A DNA stretch of 32,000 bases from Nitrosomonadaceae bacterium. Its GTDB lineage: Bacteria; Pseudomonadota; Gammaproteobacteria; Burkholderiales; Nitrosomonadaceae. The stretch covers positions 1,349,899 through 1,381,898 of the forward strand of contig OZ242188.1 in assembly GCA_965205785.1 (NCBI GenBank), in the 5' to 3' direction. Under the pieces are notes generated by a model. It saw only the letters and a program-made list of their open reading frames with translations, was not told the DNA's origin and did no database searches. Both the position numbers and the translations under genes were made by a program. Within the stretch, counting starts at the first letter, position 1. The number at the start of each line of letters is the position of its first letter. Of this stretch, positions 4,752-27,193 are shown piece by piece.

Positions 4752-6149
4752 ATGATCCATAAATCTTTACACCGAATTTTTAGCCAAGATTCCTCTACTT
4801 TTTCTTCAGAATCTATAACTACTGAGCTACGAATTATTCCACGTAAGCAACATGGTCTCATTCGCAATAGTATAAGTTCTTGTGCAACTAAAATTACCTT
4901 AGATTTACAGAGAGCAGGATATTTTGCTTTTATAGTGGGAGGCGCAGTACGTGACTTACTGTTGGGGCTAAAGCCAAAAGATTTTGACATTGCTACAAAT
5001 GCCAAACCTGATGAAATACGTGTTCTTTTTCGTCGTTCACGCATTATTGGGCGCCGTTTTCGTTTAGTACATGTTATGTGTGGATCCGAGACTGTAGAGG
5101 TATCTACATTTCGTGGTGATTCATTTACTAATAAGAATAATGAGCTCATGCCACACCTTCAGGCTGACGAGCATGGAAGAATCTTGAGAGATAACGTATT
5201 TGGTAGTCAAGAAGAAGATGTAAAGCGCCGTGATTTTACTGTTAACGCATTATTCTATGATCCAAATAAAGAAGAAATCTGGGATTATCTAAGTGGATAC
5301 AGTGATATTAAGTCAAGGCAGTTACGTATTATTGGTATGCCACTACAGCGTTACCGTGAGGATCCGGTACGTATGTTGCGGGCAGTGCGGCTTGCAGCTA
5401 AGCTTGACATGAAAATAGATACTGCTACTGCTAAGCCCATAGGCGATCTTGCTCCATTATTGCAAAATGTACCACCATCAAGACTATTTGATGAAATTTT
5501 AAAGATATTATTATGTGGCCATGCTCAAACTTGTGTGGCAGATTTACAGACACGTGGGTTGTATCATGGTTTGTTGCCAGTATTAGATGTGGTGCTTACT
5601 GAATCGGTAGATGAGCGTTTCATTTCACTTGTATTAAAGAATACTGATAAGCGTGTATACGAGGAGAAATCTGTATCTCCTGGTTTCCTATTTGCCGCAT
5701 TAATGTGGCACGAGGTATTGGCAATATGGAATAAACGTAAGGCAGATGGAGAGAAATCTATCTCTGCTCTGTACATGGCAATAAAAGATGTGATGGCAAG
5801 TCAAGACAAGAAACTAATAATCCCACGTAGATATGATGCAATTATGCAAGAGATCTGGGTAATGCAACCACGTTTCCTTGGCAGAGCTGGACGTAAGCCA
5901 TTCCGTTTGCTGGAGCATCCACGCTTCAGGGCAGCCTATGATTTTATGTTGTTACGTTGTGAGAGTGGTGAGATAGATATGGAGTTGGGAAATTGGTGGG
6001 AAACATTTCAGCATGCTAAAGCCAGTGATCGAGAAGATATGCTATTTAGAAATGAAGCTCCAAAAAAACGAAGAAGAAGGCGAAAGAAAAATGAAACTGT
6101 GACTGAAAGTACACAAAGTATAAATTCAGTTTCAGGATCTGCAAAATAA
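4752..6149 (+). CDS. pcnB: poly(A) polymerase I
   Basis: 465 aa. Nucleotidyltransferase motif FIVGGAVRDLLLG..PKDFDIAT, RDFT(V)NALFYD and a basic C-terminal tail KKRRRRRKK. The pcnB-folK adjacency is conserved. Confidence 0.9.
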   Translation: MIHKSLHRIFSQDSSTFSSESITTELRIIPRKQHGLIRNSISSCATKITLDLQRAGYFAFIVGGAVRDLLLGLKPKDFDIATNAKPDEIRVLFRRSRIIGRRFRLVHVMCGSETVEVSTFRGDSFTNKNNELMPHLQADEHGRILRDNVFGSQEEDVKRRDFTVNALFYDPNKEEIWDYLSGYSDIKSRQLRIIGMPLQRYREDPVRMLRAVRLAAKLDMKIDTATAKPIGDLAPLLQNVPPSRLFDEILKILLCGHAQTCVADLQTRGLYHGLLPVLDVVLTESVDERFISLVLKNTDKRVYEEKSVSPGFLFAALMWHEVLAIWNKRKADGEKSISALYMAIKDVMASQDKKLIIPRRYDAIMQEIWVMQPRFLGRAGRKPFRLLEHPRFRAAYDFMLLRCESGEIDMELGNWWETFQHAKASDREDMLFRNEAPKKRRRRRKKNETVTESTQSINSVSGSAK

Positions 6150-8114: not shown

Positions 8115-8951
8115 GTGGAGATAATTACTGATATTTCATCCCTGCGCTTGCGACTTAAGTCCGAGCATTATGTTGTATTTGTTCCGACTATGGGTAACTT
8201 GCATGAAGGCCATTTATCATTATTACAAATTGCGAAACAAAAGTCTGGTTGTTTAGTAGCCAGTATTTTTGTAAATCGTTTGCAATTTGGACGGACTAGT
8301 GATTTTGATCGATACCCACGCACTCCAATAGATGATTTCAAATTATTAGAGAATTATGGAGTTGATGTAGTATTTTCTCCCACAGAGAAGGATATTTATC
8401 CAGTGCAGCAGGAGTTCCTTATAGAGCCTCCGCCTCTGGCAAATATTTTAGAAGGAAAATTTAGGCCCGGATTTTTTTGTGGCGTAGCTACGTTAGTCTT
8501 AAAACTTTTTAATCTTGTACAGCCACAACTAGCCATTTTTGGAAAAAAAGACTACCAACAGTTATGTATTTTACGTGCAATGGTGCAACAGCTGAATCTA
8601 TCTATTGAAATTGATGCAGGCGAAACTATACGTACATCTGATGGGCTAGCTCTGAGTTCCCGTAACCGTTATCTCAATAGTGAAGAACGTACGGAGGCCG
8701 CACGTCTGTTTCAAGTTTTATCTAAAATAAAACAGGAAATAGAAGCTGGAAATAGAAACTTCAAGAAGTTACAAGATATCGCAAAAGAAACACTCGTAAA
8801 TTATGGCTGGAAAGTTGATTACATAGCATTACGACAAAGTGACACCCTTGCTCCGGTTCAGATAAGTGACCGTGGTTTAATAGTGCTAGGGGCGGCAAAA
8901 TTAGGTTCAACTCGATTAATAGATAACCTTGAGATATCTACAGAAATTTAG
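8115..8951 (+). CDS. panC: pantoate--beta-alanine ligase (pantothenate synthetase)
   Basis: 278 aa. VPTMGNLHEGHLSL, SIFVNRLQF, FGKKDYQQL and ALSSRN are PanC motifs. GTG start. Confidence 0.93.
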   Translation: MEIITDISSLRLRLKSEHYVVFVPTMGNLHEGHLSLLQIAKQKSGCLVASIFVNRLQFGRTSDFDRYPRTPIDDFKLLENYGVDVVFSPTEKDIYPVQQEFLIEPPPLANILEGKFRPGFFCGVATLVLKLFNLVQPQLAIFGKKDYQQLCILRAMVQQLNLSIEIDAGETIRTSDGLALSSRNRYLNSEERTEAARLFQVLSKIKQEIEAGNRNFKKLQDIAKETLVNYGWKVDYIALRQSDTLAPVQISDRGLIVLGAAKLGSTRLIDNLEISTEI

Positions 8952-23749: not shown

Positions 23750-24367
23750 TTAACGAATGAGGAGATTCATGTGAGCTTTAATTAGCTTAATTGCTCTATT
23801 TCGGAAATGATTGCCATCTGAATCTTTTACCCACATATGTAGCAAGCCAATAAAAAATAACTGTGTATCAATAGCTAATTGGGCTGGTTCATGTGAAGGG
23901 TGTAATAACCCTTGTTCCCCTGCTTTCTCATAAGTAAGACGTAATTTCTCTTCTATACCAGAACATGTTTGCAGGATTTCCTGTAAAACCACAGAAAATT
24001 CATTCACATATTCACATTTAATCATCATGATTTCGTAAATCTGTCTGGTTTCGACGCTATTACTGAGGAGCTGGATTGTTCCACATAAAAAATTTTCGAT
24101 TCGTACTAGAGGATTAATATTACTTTCAACTAGTAGTGTATCGTCCATGCGATCTATTAGAGGTAGAAATACTTGTTCACGCATAGCCTGAAATACTTCA
24201 GTCTTATTTTTGAAATGCCAGTAGATTGCTCCGCGTGTGACCCCGGCCTGTGTCGCTATATGCTCCATGGTTGTACGGCTAACCCCGCGAGCTAAAAATA
24301 CTTCACGCGCTGCGATAATGATGCTTTTTCGCGTCTATTCGGCATCTTCTTTAGTTTTTCTAGCCAT
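23750..24367 (-). pseudogene. AcrR-like TetR-family efflux repressor interrupted by an in-frame amber codon at codon 11
   Basis: Reverse-strand ATG at 24367 reads [57 protein letters not shown]..., in frame with the track ORF 23750..24268. TAG is at plus 24335-24337. E. coli AcrR begins MARKTKQEAQETRQHILD. A restart at M34 would lack helix 1 of the HTH domain. Confidence 0.8.
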
Positions 24368-24410
24368 ATTTTCAGATATTTGTTTACATACGAGGATGTT
24401 TGTATATAAC

Positions 24411-24435
24411 TACATACATACATACATACATACAT
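24411..24435. repeat. tetranucleotide microsatellite (TACA)6 plus T
   Basis: tacatacatacatacatacatacat read directly from the sequence. It lies 44 nt upstream of the acrR-like start codon, in the former divergent promoter region. Confidence 0.95.
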
Positions 24436-24447: not shown

Positions 24448-24455
24448 GTTATTTT
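24448..24455. repeat. left copy of the 8-bp target-site duplication GTTATTTT
   Basis: Identical octamer at 27186-27193, immediately outside the two inverted-repeat termini. Confidence 0.8.
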
Positions 24456-24490
24456 GGTAAGTATCCCTTCGCAACAAGTGAAAGATAATG
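24456..24490. repeat. left terminal inverted repeat (IRL)
   Basis: ggtaagtatcccttcgcaacaagtgaaagataatg, compared with the reverse complement of IRR ggtaaatatcccttgacaacaagtagagcataatg. Confidence 0.75.
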
Positions 24491-24712
24491 GATAATAATA
24501 CCAACCTTGGCAAGGTAACGCCAATCGCACTTAGACGGATGGCAAAATCAATTGCATCAAATTATGGTGATGATGGAGCAATAATAATTACGGTAGGGAA
24601 AGAAGGCGCCCGTGTAGGTGTTGAAGGTTTAACGCCTCAACAAATTCAGGATGCCCTCTGTGTTGCTATTAACTACAACTTCTATTTCTCAGAACAAGAG
24701 TCTACTTCTTAA
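24488..24712 (+). CDS. hypothetical small protein (IS cargo), 74 aa (or 57 aa from M18 at 24539)
   Basis: ORF-track ORF with a protein-like sequence (GDDGAIIITVGKEGARVGVEGLTPQQIQDALCVAINY) and no family I recognise. Its ATG lies inside IRL, within the spacer of an IRL promoter-like motif, so the start is uncertain. The 3' end overlaps the HNH gene by 11 nt. Confidence 0.45.
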   Translation: MDNNTNLGKVTPIALRRMAKSIASNYGDDGAIIITVGKEGARVGVEGLTPQQIQDALCVAINYNFYFSEQESTS

Positions 24713-24953
24713 CTTTGTCTGATTTTTCTCGGTTCTCTTCCCAGTGTAATGGTTGGAGGTTACTTGGATTATCAGAACCACCTTTAGACTCTGGATGCTT
24801 ATGGTCTATTTCCCATCCATATTCACCCGTAGTCCCATAAGATGGCTTCCTAATCTTATTGTCCTCGCCATCTTTTCACCATACATCTGGGTTTTTACCT
24901 CTAATGGGCTTAGCCTTATCCCATACTTGCTCTATTGTTTTCTTGCTTGCCAT
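24702..24953 (-). pseudogene. small HNH endonuclease gene with an in-frame TGA at codon 26
   Basis: Reverse strand reads MASKKTIEQVWDKAKPIRGKNPDVW-TGA-KDGEDNKIRKPSYGTTGEYGWEIDHKHPESKGGSDNPSNLQPLHWEENREKSDKVKK-TAG. The GWEIDH...GG.D...NLQPL....N..K.D pattern is the small HNH family signature. TGA is at plus 24876-24878 and there is no downstream Met for a restart. Confidence 0.75.
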
Positions 24954-25040
24954 GTTAAAAATACTCCATAAAACACGCTTTATTCAAACTTGACATACTA
25001 TATATATGTATGCTCAACTATAAAGCGAAGTTGAAAGAAA

Positions 25041-25107
25041 TGGAGCGGAAGGGAATTGAACCCTCGGCATGAAGTTTAGGAGACCACAGTCGTACCTAAC
25101 CCGCCCC
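25041..25107 (-). ncRNA. 67-nt tRNA-like element resembling a tmRNA tRNA-like domain; lacks an anticodon arm
   Basis: Reverse strand: GGGGCGG-GUUAGGUACGACUGUGGUCUCCUAAACUUCAUGCC-GAGGG-UUCAAUU-CCCUU-CCGCUCC-A. It has a 7-bp acceptor stem including G3:U70 and a discriminator A. The 5-bp T-stem ends in G53:C61 and carries a canonical 7-nt T-loop, UUCAAUU. The central 35 nt form only a UUAGG/CCUAA hairpin. GGUACGAC resembles the GGnUUCGAC motif at the tmRNA 5' end. No CCA is encoded. Confidence 0.45.
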
Positions 25108-25128
25108 AATGTTTATTAGTGCCTCACC

Positions 25129-25182
25129 ACCCGTATTAAGTTTGTCCGACAAGACTGAGACTTAATACGGGTTTTTCTATTT
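25129..25182 (+). terminator. plus-sense intrinsic terminator-like hairpin
   Basis: 13-bp perfect stem acccgtattaagt (25129-25141) with acttaatacgggt (25160-25172) and an 18-nt loop, followed by TTTTTCTATTT on the plus strand. On the minus strand it sits 21 nt 5' of the tRNA-like element with no U-tract after it. Confidence 0.55.
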
Positions 25183-25231
25183 GGGTCGCGAGCAACGAAG
25201 GCATAGTACGCTCGGCCTCTGCTTTAGAGCC

Positions 25232-25780
25232 TCATAATTCACCTTCCTCTTGTGATTGGTTAGAATCTTCATCGTCATTCTCTGTGCTATCAGTTTGACT
25301 AATGGGAGTGGTTGTGTAAACGCTTCTTTTGTTTGGTTCCTTGTAAATTTGCTCATTCTGAACCATGCGATATAGCTTAGCCGTTAGTAACGGACGCTTT
25401 ACAATTTCCTTGGTTTTATAATAAATTCCTATCAAAATTCTATCTAAAGAAAGCTTGCCACCAGCAGCGTCTATCAACTCGGTTATTAAAATTTCTTGTG
25501 GGTCTTTATTTTTGATACTTAACTGTTCAATTACTTCCTTTGGTAAGCCAGCTAGTTCTTTTTGAAACAATATTCCGGCTGGATCAACATCATGTGACGG
25601 CAGATTTTTGTCTCTGTCTATCCAGGTTTTTTCAAGGAATGTGAGTAGGGAGCGAAAGTGTTCTGCACTTTCACAATGGAAATTTAATTTTTTCGGATTA
25701 CTACGTGTAGCGGTTGCTCTACGGTCTTGATACTCTATTTGGGACTTTACAAAGTCGATGTGATCTGCTATATTGTTCAT
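25232..25780 (-). CDS. hypothetical protein (IS cargo), 182 aa, possible C-terminal winged-helix region and acidic tail
   Basis: The only long ORF in this interval. AAGAGGA lies 9 nt upstream of the ATG. The segment GGKLSLDRILIGIYYKTKEIVKRPLLTAKLYRMVQNEQIYKEPNKRSVYT resembles a winged-helix fold by pattern only. The tail is TENDDEDSNQSQEEGEL. No family recognised. Confidence 0.7.
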   Translation of the reverse strand: MNNIADHIDFVKSQIEYQDRRATATRSNPKKLNFHCESAEHFRSLLTFLEKTWIDRDKNLPSHDVDPAGILFQKELAGLPKEVIEQLSIKNKDPQEILITELIDAAGGKLSLDRILIGIYYKTKEIVKRPLLTAKLYRMVQNEQIYKEPNKRSVYTTTPISQTDSTENDDEDSNQSQEEGEL

Positions 25781-25869
25781 TGCTAACTGTCCTCTTTTCT
25801 GTCGATGGTTTAAGCTCTAAACTTGGTTTCCCTCAATAGAGGGGTAAAAACCCCAAGATTTGATTCAGA

Positions 25870-25898
25870 AAGCCGAGGTCTAACCACCTCGGCTTTTT
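25870..25898 (+). terminator. plus-sense intrinsic terminator-like hairpin in the leader region of the 182-aa gene
   Basis: AAGCCGAGGT (25870-25879) pairs with ACCTCGGCTT (25886-25895) around a 6-nt loop, and a TTTTT run follows on the plus strand. On the minus strand only CUUUCU follows. Confidence 0.5.
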
Positions 25899-26078
25899 CA
25901 CGTTCTTCCATATTAACATAAGATGCTGAAAATAGCAACGCTATTCCACAATAAACATGATAAGTTACGGATGCTTTAGCCGTGAGTTAACCCCATAAAT
26001 AAACGTGAGAAAATTATACTATATATTTCAATAAGATATAATTTCTTAAAATAGTGTTGTTAAATTCATGAGGAAATA

Positions 26079-26243
26079 ATGGCTATAAAAACGACAAACA
26101 AACAGACTAAATATTCTATATCATTATCACCAAAGGATAAAGAAAGACATAGGGATAACAAACGCGTTGAGACAACCAGCGGTAATAGAGGCCGCTTTAA
26201 TCGTCTTCTTGATGATGCCGTTCTAGGTGTTAAGAAGAAATAG
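26079..26243 (+). CDS. hypothetical small basic protein (IS cargo), 54 aa
   Basis: Below the ORF-track cutoff. ATG at 26079 with GAGGA 5 nt upstream. Translation MAIKTTNKQTKYSISLSPKDKERHRDNKRVETTSGNRGRFNRLLDDAVLGVKKK. The 3' end overlaps the transposase 3' end by 14 nt. Coding status unproven. Confidence 0.4.
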   Translation: MAIKTTNKQTKYSISLSPKDKERHRDNKRVETTSGNRGRFNRLLDDAVLGVKKK

Positions 26244-27123
26244 TAGGTTTGCTGATCTGTGCTAGCATCCTATGAAACATACCAGCTGGTGCTTCACGGT
26301 TGTTATATCTGAATGCAAACTCATTTACATATTTCTGTAAATGCTTACGTGATACTGAGGCATGGGTACTTCGGATACCGCGTTTTAGGTGTGACCAAAA
26401 ACCTTCAATTGTATTTGTGTAGTAGATACCGTTTACCCACTCATCAATATTGTGATTAACCTTACCATGGGTATATCCCATATTTTTTAGTGATGTATAG
26501 GAACGGTGTGTATCAGTTGAAATTGTAGTTCCGGCTTCGATATTATTTTGTACGATTGGTAGTAATGTAGCCCTTTTCTCATTGGGTACAACCTTACCTC
26601 GAAGCGATCCATTACGTTGCACCATTCCAAACACTGTACTCTTATTTTTGAGATATTCTCCTTTACCTTGCTTTTTAACTTTTACCTTGCCACCAATATA
26701 GGTTTCGTCCATTTCAACATGACCGGACAAAGAGCTAGGGTTGTTAGCTTTATCCCTTGCAGCCATGAGTTCACGCAATTGGTGTCCGATGCGCCACGCA
26801 CATTTATAGGTTACTCCTAGCTGACGTTGTAGTTCCTTGGCTGATACACCATTACGGGTTGCGGTCATAAGATACATCGCATAAAACCAATCTGTTAATG
26901 GTGTACAGGATTTCTCAAAAACTGTTCCCGAGCAAGGGTAAATATGACAACCTTCCTGACAGGCAAAAGCACGCCGACCTTCTATCCGAGTTAACTTACC
27001 AACTACACCACAGCTCGGGCATGAATCAATGTTACCATAACGCCTTTGAAGGACAGCTTGTAGGCACGTTTCATCATCAGGGTATTGGGCTTGAAACTGT
27101 TTACGGGTATATTTTTCGGTCAT
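26230..27123 (-). CDS. IS1595-family (ISXO2-like) DDE transposase with an N-terminal zinc ribbon
   Basis: Zinc-ribbon CPSCG...C..GC, then ...TPLTDWFYAMYLM...GVSAKELQRQLGVTYKCAWRIGHQLRELM...VEMDETYIGGK...TDTHRSY...GYTHGKVNH......TNTIEGFWSHLKRGI..THASVS.KHLQKYVNEFAFRYNNR. Start moved to the ATG at 27123 (GGAGA 7 nt upstream), because the track start at 27153 lies inside the promoter spacer. Confidence 0.9.
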   Translation of the reverse strand: MTEKYTRKQFQAQYPDDETCLQAVLQRRYGNIDSCPSCGVVGKLTRIEGRRAFACQEGCHIYPCSGTVFEKSCTPLTDWFYAMYLMTATRNGVSAKELQRQLGVTYKCAWRIGHQLRELMAARDKANNPSSLSGHVEMDETYIGGKVKVKKQGKGEYLKNKSTVFGMVQRNGSLRGKVVPNEKRATLLPIVQNNIEAGTTISTDTHRSYTSLKNMGYTHGKVNHNIDEWVNGIYYTNTIEGFWSHLKRGIRSTHASVSRKHLQKYVNEFAFRYNNREAPAGMFHRMLAQISKPTISS

Positions 27124-27144
27124 ATTTGTATCTCCAATGACTAA

Positions 27145-27173
27145 ACTATACATTATGCTCTACTTGTTGTCAA
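27145..27173 (-). promoter_or_regulatory. inward-facing near-consensus sigma70 promoter inside IRR (transposase promoter)
   Basis: Reverse strand TTGACA (plus 27168-27173), a 17-nt spacer, then TATAGT (plus 27145-27150), followed by GGAGA and the ATG at 27123. Confidence 0.5.
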
Positions 27174-27185
27174 GGGATATTTACC
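27151..27185. repeat. right terminal inverted repeat (IRR)
   Basis: cattatgctctacttgttgtcaagggatatttacc. Its reverse complement matches IRL at 28/35. Confidence 0.75.
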
Positions 27186-27193
27186 GTTATTTT
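27186..27193. repeat. right copy of the 8-bp target-site duplication GTTATTTT
   Basis: Exact copy of 24448-24455, directly abutting IRR. Confidence 0.8.

Follow-up and report, generated by a model that had tools for sequence, protein, structure and literature searches.

An IS1595-family insertion sequence from a Nitrosomonadaceae bacterium with a protein-plus-RNA passenger module ending in a D-armless tRNA-like domain

The DNA considered here is a 32,000-nucleotide stretch from a Nitrosomonadaceae bacterium (assembly GCA_965205785.1, contig OZ242188.1, positions 1,349,899 to 1,381,898 of the forward strand; this whole stretch is called the window, and its own coordinates are used throughout). 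Between an acrR-like TetR gene and an RND efflux operon it contains an intact element of 2,730 bp (24456-27185), which belongs to the IS1595 family of insertion sequences (IS). Read from its right end, the backbone of this element consists of the right terminal inverted repeat (IRR) with the promoter of the transposase gene (tnp), the transposase, a small convergent open reading frame (ORF), a promoter with a leader, the gene orf182, an RNA of about 200 nt, a set of variable small genes and the left terminal inverted repeat (IRL; Table 1). What is new here is the RNA, whose 3' part is a bacterial tRNA-like domain without D-arm, uniting alanine acceptor identity with arginine anticodons, to which the synonymous codon choice of the transposase gene appears to be tied.

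A preliminary description, made from the letters of the window, had proposed an IS1595-family element with exactly these ends and an exact 8-bp target duplication, and all three points are upheld by the inverted repeats (IR), the octamer and Pfam. IRL and the reverse complement of IRR are identical at 28 of 35 positions and differ at seven, as had been counted before; in a repeat search no inverted repeat of the region was longer than this pair, which extends there to 39 nt at 79%, and a 24-nt degenerate IR core occurs at two sites only in the 32-kb window (0 expected, 100 shuffles). The octamer GTTATTTT indeed abuts both termini. The proposed zinc-ribbon plus DDE architecture of the transposase was recovered as well: PF12762 (DDE_Tnp_IS1595) matches with 7.2e-43 over profile positions 2-153 of 153, PF12760 (Zn_ribbon_IS1595) with 1.5e-9 over transposase residues 25-70, and a D...D...E(x7)K motif is readable in the sequence. 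Deleting 24456-27193 leaves 110 bp from the TetR start to the start of the membrane fusion protein (MFP) gene, in agreement with the earlier figure, and the empty site predicted from this deletion turned up, nearly base for base, in a related metagenome contig (L217; ENA ERZ25070530 ctg81686, 8.2 kb), reached via a relative of the periplasmic adaptor protein beside the element (at least 90% identical, same 90% cluster). L217 matches the window flanks with 91.8% over 4,995 bp and 94.0% over 3,191 bp and has nothing between them; its junction reads ...gtaagcaaGCTATTTTagtaaaaatatggg... with one copy of the octamer (GCTATTTT), and an intergenic region of 101 bp separates its adaptor gene from a TetR gene that is intact (205 aa).

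The proposed check for further copies with the same ends and different flanks yielded eight relatives with the same IR and 8-bp duplications of their own: L001 (CCTAAAGG), L002 (CACTAATC), L003 (CAAAATCC), L008 (CAGTCCTA), L081 (CCTTAAGG), L089 (ATTTCTTT), L215 (CCTGAAGG) and L219 (AGAGGAAT). The IR core, GGCATGTATCCCTTGACAGCAAGTAA or close to it, was seen in L001, L002, L081, L089, L215, L218 and L219. Elements of the clade sharing this core are 2.2-3.7 kb long, and cargo is therefore the rule in this clade. That 24456-27185 is a real IS1595 insertion is virtually certain, and the comparison shows it to be a recently inserted transporter IS of this family. The insertion event itself is ordinary, though cleanly proven: a transporter IS has divided a TetR/RND-efflux control region, and in this genome the TetR gene has a nonsense codon as well.

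Table 1. Parts of the IS1595-family element and its target duplication in the window
Feature	Position	Strand	Basis or remark
Left 8-bp duplication GTTATTTT	24448..24455		single copy at the L217 empty site
IRL, terminal inverted repeat	24456..24490	+	repeat search; IR core common to relatives
orf74, variable cargo	24488..24712	+	ORF
HNH endonuclease pseudogene, small, variable cargo	24702..24953	-	one in-frame TGA
tRNA-like domain without D-arm	25041..25107	-	T-run 3'; Rfam tmRNA ends, ARAGORN D-armless mode, covariation
Pseudoknotted domain	25121..25217	-	alignment fold and pair counts
Mini-ORF AUG AGG CUC UAA with own Shine-Dalgarno sequence	25224..25235	-	AUG overlaps orf182 stop (AUGA)
orf182, helical hairpin and winged helix	25232..25780	-	homologues, AlphaFold2, Foldseek
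orf182 5' leader and putative promoter	25781..25938	-	conserved; promoter read from sequence
orf54, small ORF, conserved backbone	26079..26243	+	convergent with tnp, overlaps tnp 3' end
IS1595-family transposase, 297 aa	26230..27123	-	Pfam; AGG codons 27, 123, 285
Sigma-70-like promoter TTGACA-17-TATAGT inside IRR	27145..27173	-	11/12 matches; reads into tnp
IRR, terminal inverted repeat	27151..27185	-	repeat search
Right 8-bp duplication GTTATTTT	27186..27193		read from sequence

The cargo had been listed as a loose collection of ORFs, an HNH pseudogene, a tRNA-like RNA and two terminators. The ORFs, the pseudogene and the tRNA-like RNA stand; the two terminators and the notion of a loose collection do not. 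The tRNA-like RNA is the 3' domain of an RNA of about 200 nt, and the core of the cargo is a conserved protein-plus-RNA module. The supposed terminators are opposite-strand readings of two hairpins, both belonging to the minus strand: hairpin H2 of the RNA, with the A-rich linker, and the hairpin in the orf182 5' leader, which resemble terminators when read on the plus strand. The RNA lies on the orf182 strand, is presumably co-transcribed with orf182, and consists of a Shine-Dalgarno sequence with a mini-ORF, a pseudoknotted two-hairpin domain and the tRNA-like domain. Whole or in part, it was found at no fewer than 17 distinct loci including the window. A covariance model (R1) retrieved 14 full-length and 3 partial copies (alignment A4), and L218 and L219 at a later stage; a scan of metagenomes with a T-arm pattern gave, among the matches listed, mostly ordinary tRNA-Asp and tRNA-Ala genes, and all copy counts are to be read as lower bounds.

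Folding a MAFFT alignment of 11 copies gave hairpin H1, the long hairpin H2, a 4-bp helix between the D-region and the variable region, and the acceptor/T branch; to this fold we added a pseudoknot joining the loop of H1 to the bases that follow H2. In the window, H1 occupies 25185-25217 and is followed by the A-rich linker and H2 (25130-25172), while the H1 loop (25197-25202) pairs with 25121-25127. All cells of the pseudoknot helix are paired (100%): the loop variants GCCAC, UGCCU, GCCAU and GUCAC meet the partners GUGGC, AGGCA, AUGGC and GUGAC, and three pairs change on both sides. Over the whole MAFFT alignment, 95.3% of the cells are paired, versus 41-50% with slid partners, and in 19 pairs both partners have changed. 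The 17-row model alignment (93.5% of cells paired, versus about 45% with slid partners, 31 pairs changed on both sides, none of 500 shuffles reaching any of five measures) leans towards structure because it was fitted to the covariance model, a bias from which the MAFFT alignment is free. Compensatory changes occur in six helices and in the pseudoknot. The G-U pairs of H1, of the top of H2 and of the pseudoknot fit the minus (orf182) strand only, and a function of the hairpins as plus-strand intrinsic terminators was dropped on that account; H2, itself all Watson-Crick, may have an additional antisense terminator role. A frameshift or readthrough signal for orf182 was also considered and dropped, since the pseudoknot is kept without a long preceding ORF in L168 and L104. 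A search of Rfam 15 gave no family above threshold and, at E<=1, tmRNA ends and chance miRNA matches only; the structured RNA family thus is absent from Rfam 15. That we are dealing with a conserved functional structured RNA with a tRNA-like domain is hardly in doubt.

The tRNA-like domain (window 25107->25041) reads GGGGCGG GUUAGGUA CGAC UGUGGU CUCCUAA ACUUCAU GCCG AGGGUUCAAUUCCCU UCCGCUCC A and comprises about 66 nt with a 12-bp acceptor/T branch, split into 8 + 4 by RNAalifold and 7 + 5 by ARAGORN. The T arm is canonical with a T-loop of the GTTCRANYC type (GGTTCAATTCC), and the two helices of the branch (helices 5 and 8) are 99-100% paired with compensatory changes. The acceptor GGGGCGG/CCGCUCC contains G3 (25105):U70 (25044) and A73 (25041). 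The G3:U70 pair is kept as G-U in 16/16 copies and A73 is constant, while the acceptor pairs 5:68 and 7:66 covary (GGGGUGC/GCACUCC in L002, U7-A66 in L212, GGGGUGU/ACACUCC in L218). G3:U70 together with A73 is the identity set of alanyl-tRNA synthetase (AlaRS), and G3:U70 suffices for this enzyme to charge even minihelices. The other end of the molecule speaks for arginine: the 7-nt anticodon loop, CU-CCU-AA in the window (anticodon 25080-25078), follows the scheme C/U-U-NNN-A-N in every copy (C/U32, U33, A37), and NNN is CCU in 11 copies, UCU in 5 and GCG in 1, all of them arginine anticodons. C35 plus U36 or G36 are the main determinants of arginyl-tRNA synthetase (ArgRS). In its D-armless mode, ARAGORN called 14 of 15 copies as 'D-loop mtRNA-Arg' (cct, tct or gcg; the window copy as cct) with exact G1-A73 ends, and 15 of 15 at a 90% threshold; in standard mode, the L153 copy alone was called, as tRNA-Arg(cct). 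If the RNA is aminoacylated, alanine is probably among the amino acids accepted. Two further candidates were rejected: an att-site or ssrA 3' remnant, since the RNA has a D-region and the two strands of the acceptor, all of them covarying, and a tiny tmRNA tag frame (GCU AGC GUC UUC UAA) in the 21-nt internal segment, which has UAC for UAA in L001, L081 and L137 and is too short for an mRNA-like domain.

A Shine-Dalgarno sequence and a short ORF always lie directly upstream of H1. This mini-ORF is kept in all 16 copies bearing the tRNA-like domain and takes the forms AUG AGG stop, AUG AGG CUC stop, AUG AGG AGA stop or AUG AGA AGA stop (in L081 the start is GUG); it overlaps the stop codon of the upstream gene and is freestanding in L104 and L168. 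Its second codon is AGA in three of five UCU-type copies and in none of the ten CCU-type copies. In the deletion variant L213, which has lost the tRNA-like domain, the mini-ORF reads AUG ACA UUA UAA and contains no AGR (AGA or AGG) codon.

The same codons recur in the transposase gene, which has AGG at codons 27 (27045-27043), 123 (26757-26755) and 285 (26271-26269) in the window. We compared nine transposases of the clade (those of the window, L001, L002, L010, L081, L089, L215, L218 and L219), which are 64-89% identical to the window transposase at the amino-acid level. Codons 27 and 123 are AGR in all nine (AGG in eight, AGA in L215) and codon 285 in seven of eight, while the remaining invariant arginine columns use CGN, two isolated codons excepted. 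Synonymous sites are saturated: among 52 invariant four-fold-degenerate columns, not one has the same third base in all six sequences compared. Across 80 loci of the wider family, the essential arginines stay conserved, and the residues at the three AGR positions are variable (Q/L/N/R/V at 27, gap/D/T/S/A at 123, T/S/L/A/R at 285). Saturation and variability taken together argue that it is the codon which is preserved at these positions rather than the amino acid, and apparently only where substitution is tolerated. The host background uses AGG seldom (15 per 7,573 codons), and the eleven orf182-family genes have none. AGA at both codons 27 and 123 is confined to L215, whose tRNA-like domain has the anticodon UCU, and L215 is the one IS1595-borne copy in which a UCU domain meets AGA-type codons. 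As far as sequences can show it, the codon choice of the transposase gene is coupled to the RNA at the codon level.

The module is found in a variety of settings. Among species-representative genomes, the closest transposase is that of L001 (a Methylotenera metagenome-assembled genome; 68% identity), whose element has the same order of parts: tnp, small convergent ORF, leader, orf182 homologue (55% identity) and tRNA-like domain. An orf182 homologue with the same RNA occurs in the IS1595 elements L001, L081, L089, L215 and L218 and, outside IS1595, next to TniQ in L090 and within islands characterised by an integrase (L085) or by AlpA/UmuDC (L212). Nucleotide-level conservation extends over the 200 nt that follow the orf182 stop; exceptions are the distant homologue L084 and contigs ending early, such as L086, where an orf182 relative lies next to IS21 and the contig ends too soon to show the downstream 200 nt. 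The RNA is a more constant part of the module than the protein: the gene in front of it encodes an unrelated protein of 140 aa in L104 (1378-1800) and DUF5343 proteins in L002 (8201-8902) and L219 (5409-6200), and in L168 (reverse complement, 830-1090) the RNA has a promoter and no ORF. The L104 partner combines a coiled coil with a winged helix and has a weak AbiEi match. Reduced copies occur as well: L213 (1048-1191) has H1, the pseudoknot and H2, L218 (5970-6149) is without H1, and L153 (1085-1160) and L177 (242-329) consist of the tRNA-like domain alone behind an unrelated hairpin. With the RNA as query, BLAST found nothing in plasmids or phages, and scans of viral contigs gave one ordinary tRNA and one distant orf182 homologue with a plain terminator and no RNA.

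The protein encoded by orf182 has 17 close homologues among 5.8 billion proteins, and a profile search gave 841 representatives, none of those sampled being assigned to a Pfam or NCBIfam family. The protein itself has no match in Pfam, PHROGs, NCBIfam or PADLOC and nothing significant in a sequence profile search of the PDB. The AlphaFold2 model, computed from the 17-sequence alignment (pLDDT 75.6), begins with two long helices and ends in a winged helix, and its best Foldseek matches in the PDB, though with weak E-values, are winged-helix DNA binders (STIV F93, CopR, ArsR family); orf182 thus probably encodes a DNA-binding regulator. The idea that it is the exclusive partner of the RNA was dropped, for the distant homologue L216 has no RNA and three unrelated proteins can replace orf182. 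Its putative promoter (TTGCTA 25938-25933, 17-nt spacer, TAATAT 25915-25910) lies below the threshold of the promoter scan. The leader forms a covarying hairpin followed by an invariant CUUGG..CCCCUCUAUUGAGGGAAACCAAG. In this leader (25781-25900, minus strand), the invariant element CUUGG-N-UUUUACCCCUCUAAGGAGGGAAACCAAG has no covariation because nothing varies there, and a Shine-Dalgarno-like AAGGAGG is paired with CCCCUC. Directly 5' of the distant homologue in L084 (P0016, 41%) lies a 96-nt serine-type tRNA (4885-4980; long variable arm, G73) with the anticodon AUC, called tRNA-Asp(atc) by ARAGORN, another mismatch of acceptor and anticodon beside the orf182 protein family.

The explanation we consider best, with about equal chances of being right or wrong, is that of a transporter IS with its own AGR decoder, which would gate or recode the translation of its transposase. 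For the more specific statement that the tRNA-like domain is an AGR-codon decoder linked to the transposase, we would settle slightly below the point of balance. According to this scheme, the RNA would be trimmed to a small adaptor and then aminoacylated, alanine being the likeliest amino acid and arginine a possible second one; the adaptor would read the rare AGG and AGA codons, most simply as alanine. The element would keep AGR at three substitution-tolerant positions of the transposase gene and in the mini-ORF, so that transposase synthesis would be gated by the element's own decoder and perhaps recoded from Arg to Ala. Production of the decoder would be set by the winged-helix regulator (orf182), and ribosomes on the AGR mini-ORF, directly against the pseudoknot, might provide feedback as a form of translation sensing. 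A bolder version is rather unlikely in our view, namely a private codon assignment, in which an Ala-charged D-armless tRNA would make AGR mean Ala or leave it ambiguous and would gate transposition via the translation-sensing pseudoknot, while outside IS1595, with its interchangeable partner proteins, the module might serve as a codon-specific mistranslation weapon or as a defence against AGR-rich invaders.

Several observations weigh against decoding by the RNA. A decoding scheme is weakest at the irregular anticodon stem: helix 7 is 67.7% paired in the 17-row alignment, the loop-proximal pairs being present in 16/16 and 13/16 copies and the next four in about 50-60% of the cells. A D stem is missing and the 4-bp helix between D-region and variable region stands in its place; we know of no D-armless bacterial tRNA that works on the ribosome. 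Default ARAGORN called neither a tRNA nor a tmRNA in the window, L001, L002, L081, L085 or L090, and the Rfam tmRNA model (RF00023) matches with its two ends only (25 bits, E 2e-7; gathering threshold 47 bits). The tracking of codons by anticodons is imperfect, too: L001 pairs AGA at codon 285 with a CCU anticodon, L002 pairs a UCU anticodon with AGG codons, which is compatible through wobble only, and L212 mixes a GCG anticodon with an AGG mini-ORF. Moreover, the lineages are few and their sequences related by descent. Control of the transposase cannot be the sole role of the module, since it occurs without an IS1595 transposase in L085, L090 and L212, and the match of the DUF5343 partners in L002 and L219 to the PADLOC phage-defence candidate PDC-M34A (6e-9) hints at another function.

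The simplest alternative keeps the decoding and drops the alanine: a rare-codon tRNA-Arg, charged by ArgRS, would help to translate the AGR-containing genes of the element in hosts poor in tRNA-Arg(CCU/UCU), and G3:U70 would be incidental or minor. The exclusively arginine anticodons with C35 plus U36 or G36, the conservation of AGR in the transposase gene and the rarity of AGG in the host agree with it, yet G3:U70 and A73 are invariant in 16/16 copies while the neighbouring acceptor pairs covary, no D-loop with an equivalent of A20 can be assigned, and AGR stands only at positions unconstrained in the wider family, for which reason ambiguity or insertion of Ala would fit better than a need for Arg. 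We hold this alternative to be unlikely, and the same applies to a mimic or decoy that would titrate SmpB, AlaRS or EF-Tu, or act as sacrificial substrate or sensor for tRNA-Arg anticodon nucleases or tRNA-modifying toxins, within a defence, anti-defence or addiction cassette. A decoy would accommodate the two-ended tmRNA match, the D-region GUUUGGUACGGC, which in our reading resembles the tmRNA D-loop analogue, and the irregular anticodon stem; it would also suit the module's place as cargo beside TniQ/NACHT, integrase and UmuDC genes, its interchangeable partners including DUF5343 (PDC-M34A) and the weakly AbiEi-like winged helix, and the irregular tRNAs on record near toxin-antitoxin systems and transposons (PMC5389517). 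It leaves unexplained the upkeep of AGR at codons 27, 123 and 285 and the tracking of codon and anticodon; furthermore, no nuclease or toxin gene is a constant neighbour and orf182 has no PADLOC match.

Two further readings are less probable still. 3' tRNA-like structures define and stabilise the 3' ends of plant RNA viruses, and the domain could similarly belong to a 3'-untranslated region, as a site for RNase P, RNase Z or CCA addition and as a block to exonucleases, the pseudoknot modulating translational termination or coupling. The RNA does lie directly 3' of an ORF, with which it is translationally coupled (overlapping AUGA), is followed by a T-run, and tolerates an exchange of the upstream protein; L168, however, has promoter and RNA without an upstream ORF, and the invariant U33/A37 loop limited to Arg anticodons, G3:U70 and the AGR pattern in tnp would be left without a reason, so that we regard this possibility as quite improbable. 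Incidental debris, i.e. captured ORFs, a decayed tRNA or tmRNA fragment or att remnant and two terminators, all without function, might be suspected from the broken HNH gene, the lack of homologues of orf74 and the failure of default ARAGORN to find a tRNA. It is contradicted by the covariation counts, as at least 17 distinct loci keep the RNA or part of it with compensatory changes in six helices and the pseudoknot, by the presence of both acceptor strands, which an att remnant does not need, and by the recurrence of the module in unrelated mobile elements; its probability is negligible.

IS1595 copies with passenger genes are known as 'transporter IS' (Siguier, Gagnevin & Chandler 2009, as cited in PMC3129680). 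The present element agrees with them in its zinc-ribbon plus DDE_Tnp_IS1595 transposase, the terminal IRs, the 8-bp duplication and the passenger genes between the IRs, and differs in that the passenger core consists of a regulator and a structured RNA with a tRNA-like domain, to which tnp is coupled at the codon level. Literature searches turned up neither an account of this RNA nor any RNA passenger in IS1595, and to our knowledge no described IS1595 member has one. The RNA is not a tmRNA, having no mRNA-like domain and a score below gathering. It shares with the tRNA-like domain of tmRNA (RF00023) the GGGG.. acceptor with G3:U70, A73, the T arm, a stemless D-loop analogue and a helix abutting the T arm; in place of the pseudoknots and tag frame of about 300 nt, however, it has 21-25 nt, which form an anticodon-like stem-loop (in the Rfam match, 27 nt stand for 328 model positions), and its pseudoknot and mini-ORF lie 5' of the whole tRNA-like domain instead of inside it.

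Without a D-arm, the domain is not a canonical tRNA either. D-armless metazoan mitochondrial tRNAs likewise have a short connector for the D-arm, and the mitochondrial mode of ARAGORN, the only one in which a D-replacement loop is drawn, recognises the present RNA. Unlike them, this RNA is bacterial, chromosomal and borne on a mobile element; its T arm is canonical throughout, and a GG motif is available for contact at the elbow; we know of no specialised EF-Tu for D-armless tRNA in bacteria. Rare-codon tRNA-Arg genes occur on phages and islands, and AGA/AGG codons control lambda int. Here, too, a mobile element is tied to AGR decoding, with AGR in a recombinase gene and in short frames; those cases involve canonical or host tRNAs, whereas the adaptor proposed here would be reduced, of alanine identity and directed at substitution-tolerant sites. 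The nearest precedent is provided by the irregular tRNAs found near transposon-related genes and toxin-antitoxin systems in soil bacteria (Mukai et al., NAR 2017, PMC5389517). Some of these have G3:U70 with non-alanine anticodons including GCG and were charged with Ala in E. coli, and anticodons for AGA/AGG occur among them (PMC5389517). For the acceptor/T branch, where allo-tRNAs have an 8/4 or 9/3 configuration, RNAalifold draws our RNA as 8/4 and ARAGORN as 7/5. The domain is no allo-tRNA: it has neither their D-arm nor their long variable arm, and it is embedded in a longer RNA with mini-ORF and pseudoknot, 3' of a protein gene. Natural mistranslating tRNAs are also represented by tRNAPro with Ala, Thr or Asn anticodons (PMC10404621), in which acceptor identity and anticodon likewise specify different amino acids; those fold as canonical cloverleaves and have a synthetase of their own in Streptomyces, while the present domain is D-armless, IS-borne and without a synthetase gene. 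Should the adaptor decode, the element would be the first IS shown to supply a translational adaptor of its own. It would provide a natural example of codon reassignment private to an element, or of mistranslation under regulation, and its minimal tRNA scaffold would be of interest for genetic-code engineering. The use of D-armless tRNAs by bacterial ribosomes and the control of transposition via rare-codon supply become testable questions.

Some smaller features of the element and its surroundings deserve mention. For the HNH pseudogene, whose earlier identification holds, PF01844 matches with 1e-7 after repair of the single stop codon of the ORF (24953->24702, minus strand); relatives carry other small genes at its position. 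Four loci have, 3' of the tRNA-like domain, an ORF of 47-54 aa (..ETTSQRVAxIASxLLxxPKTPxKVKSVAASALTQ..; L001 8032-8196, L104 2054-2200, L138 1015-1158, L168 reverse complement 1188-1330), and elsewhere its place is taken by GIY-YIG-like, zinc-ribbon or HNH genes. For orf74, neither Pfam, PHROG, NCBIfam nor PADLOC matches nor any homologue were found, and it does not occur in the related elements. The orf54-like ORF is conserved in the clade (50-63 aa, C-terminus ..F..LLDDA..G..KK), with homologues in L001 (6872-7063), L002 (7689-7847), L081 (4577-4732), L215 (966-1121) and L219 (4878-5030), all on the minus strand; it has no match in Pfam, PHROGs, NCBIfam or PADLOC and may be a transposition regulator or an antisense feature.

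In the flanks, the acrR-like TetR gene (23750-24367, minus strand) has an in-frame TAG at codon 11 (plus strand 24335-24337), where the intact 205-aa orthologue of L217 has TTG, and on the basis of this difference the repressor of the efflux operon looks to have been inactivated independently of the IS. An (ACAT)n tract in the TetR/efflux intergenic region (24403-24434) is 12 nt longer in the window than in L217 and was the source of the chance miRNA matches in the Rfam search. The window and L089 copies sit in AT-rich octamers; three relatives have near-palindromic targets of the form AACCT-NN-AGGTT (L001 with CCTAAAGG, 5930-5945 / 8488-8500; L081 with CCTTAAGG, 2720-2735; L215 with CCTGAAGG, 22-37), which suggests a target preference or a repeated host sequence.

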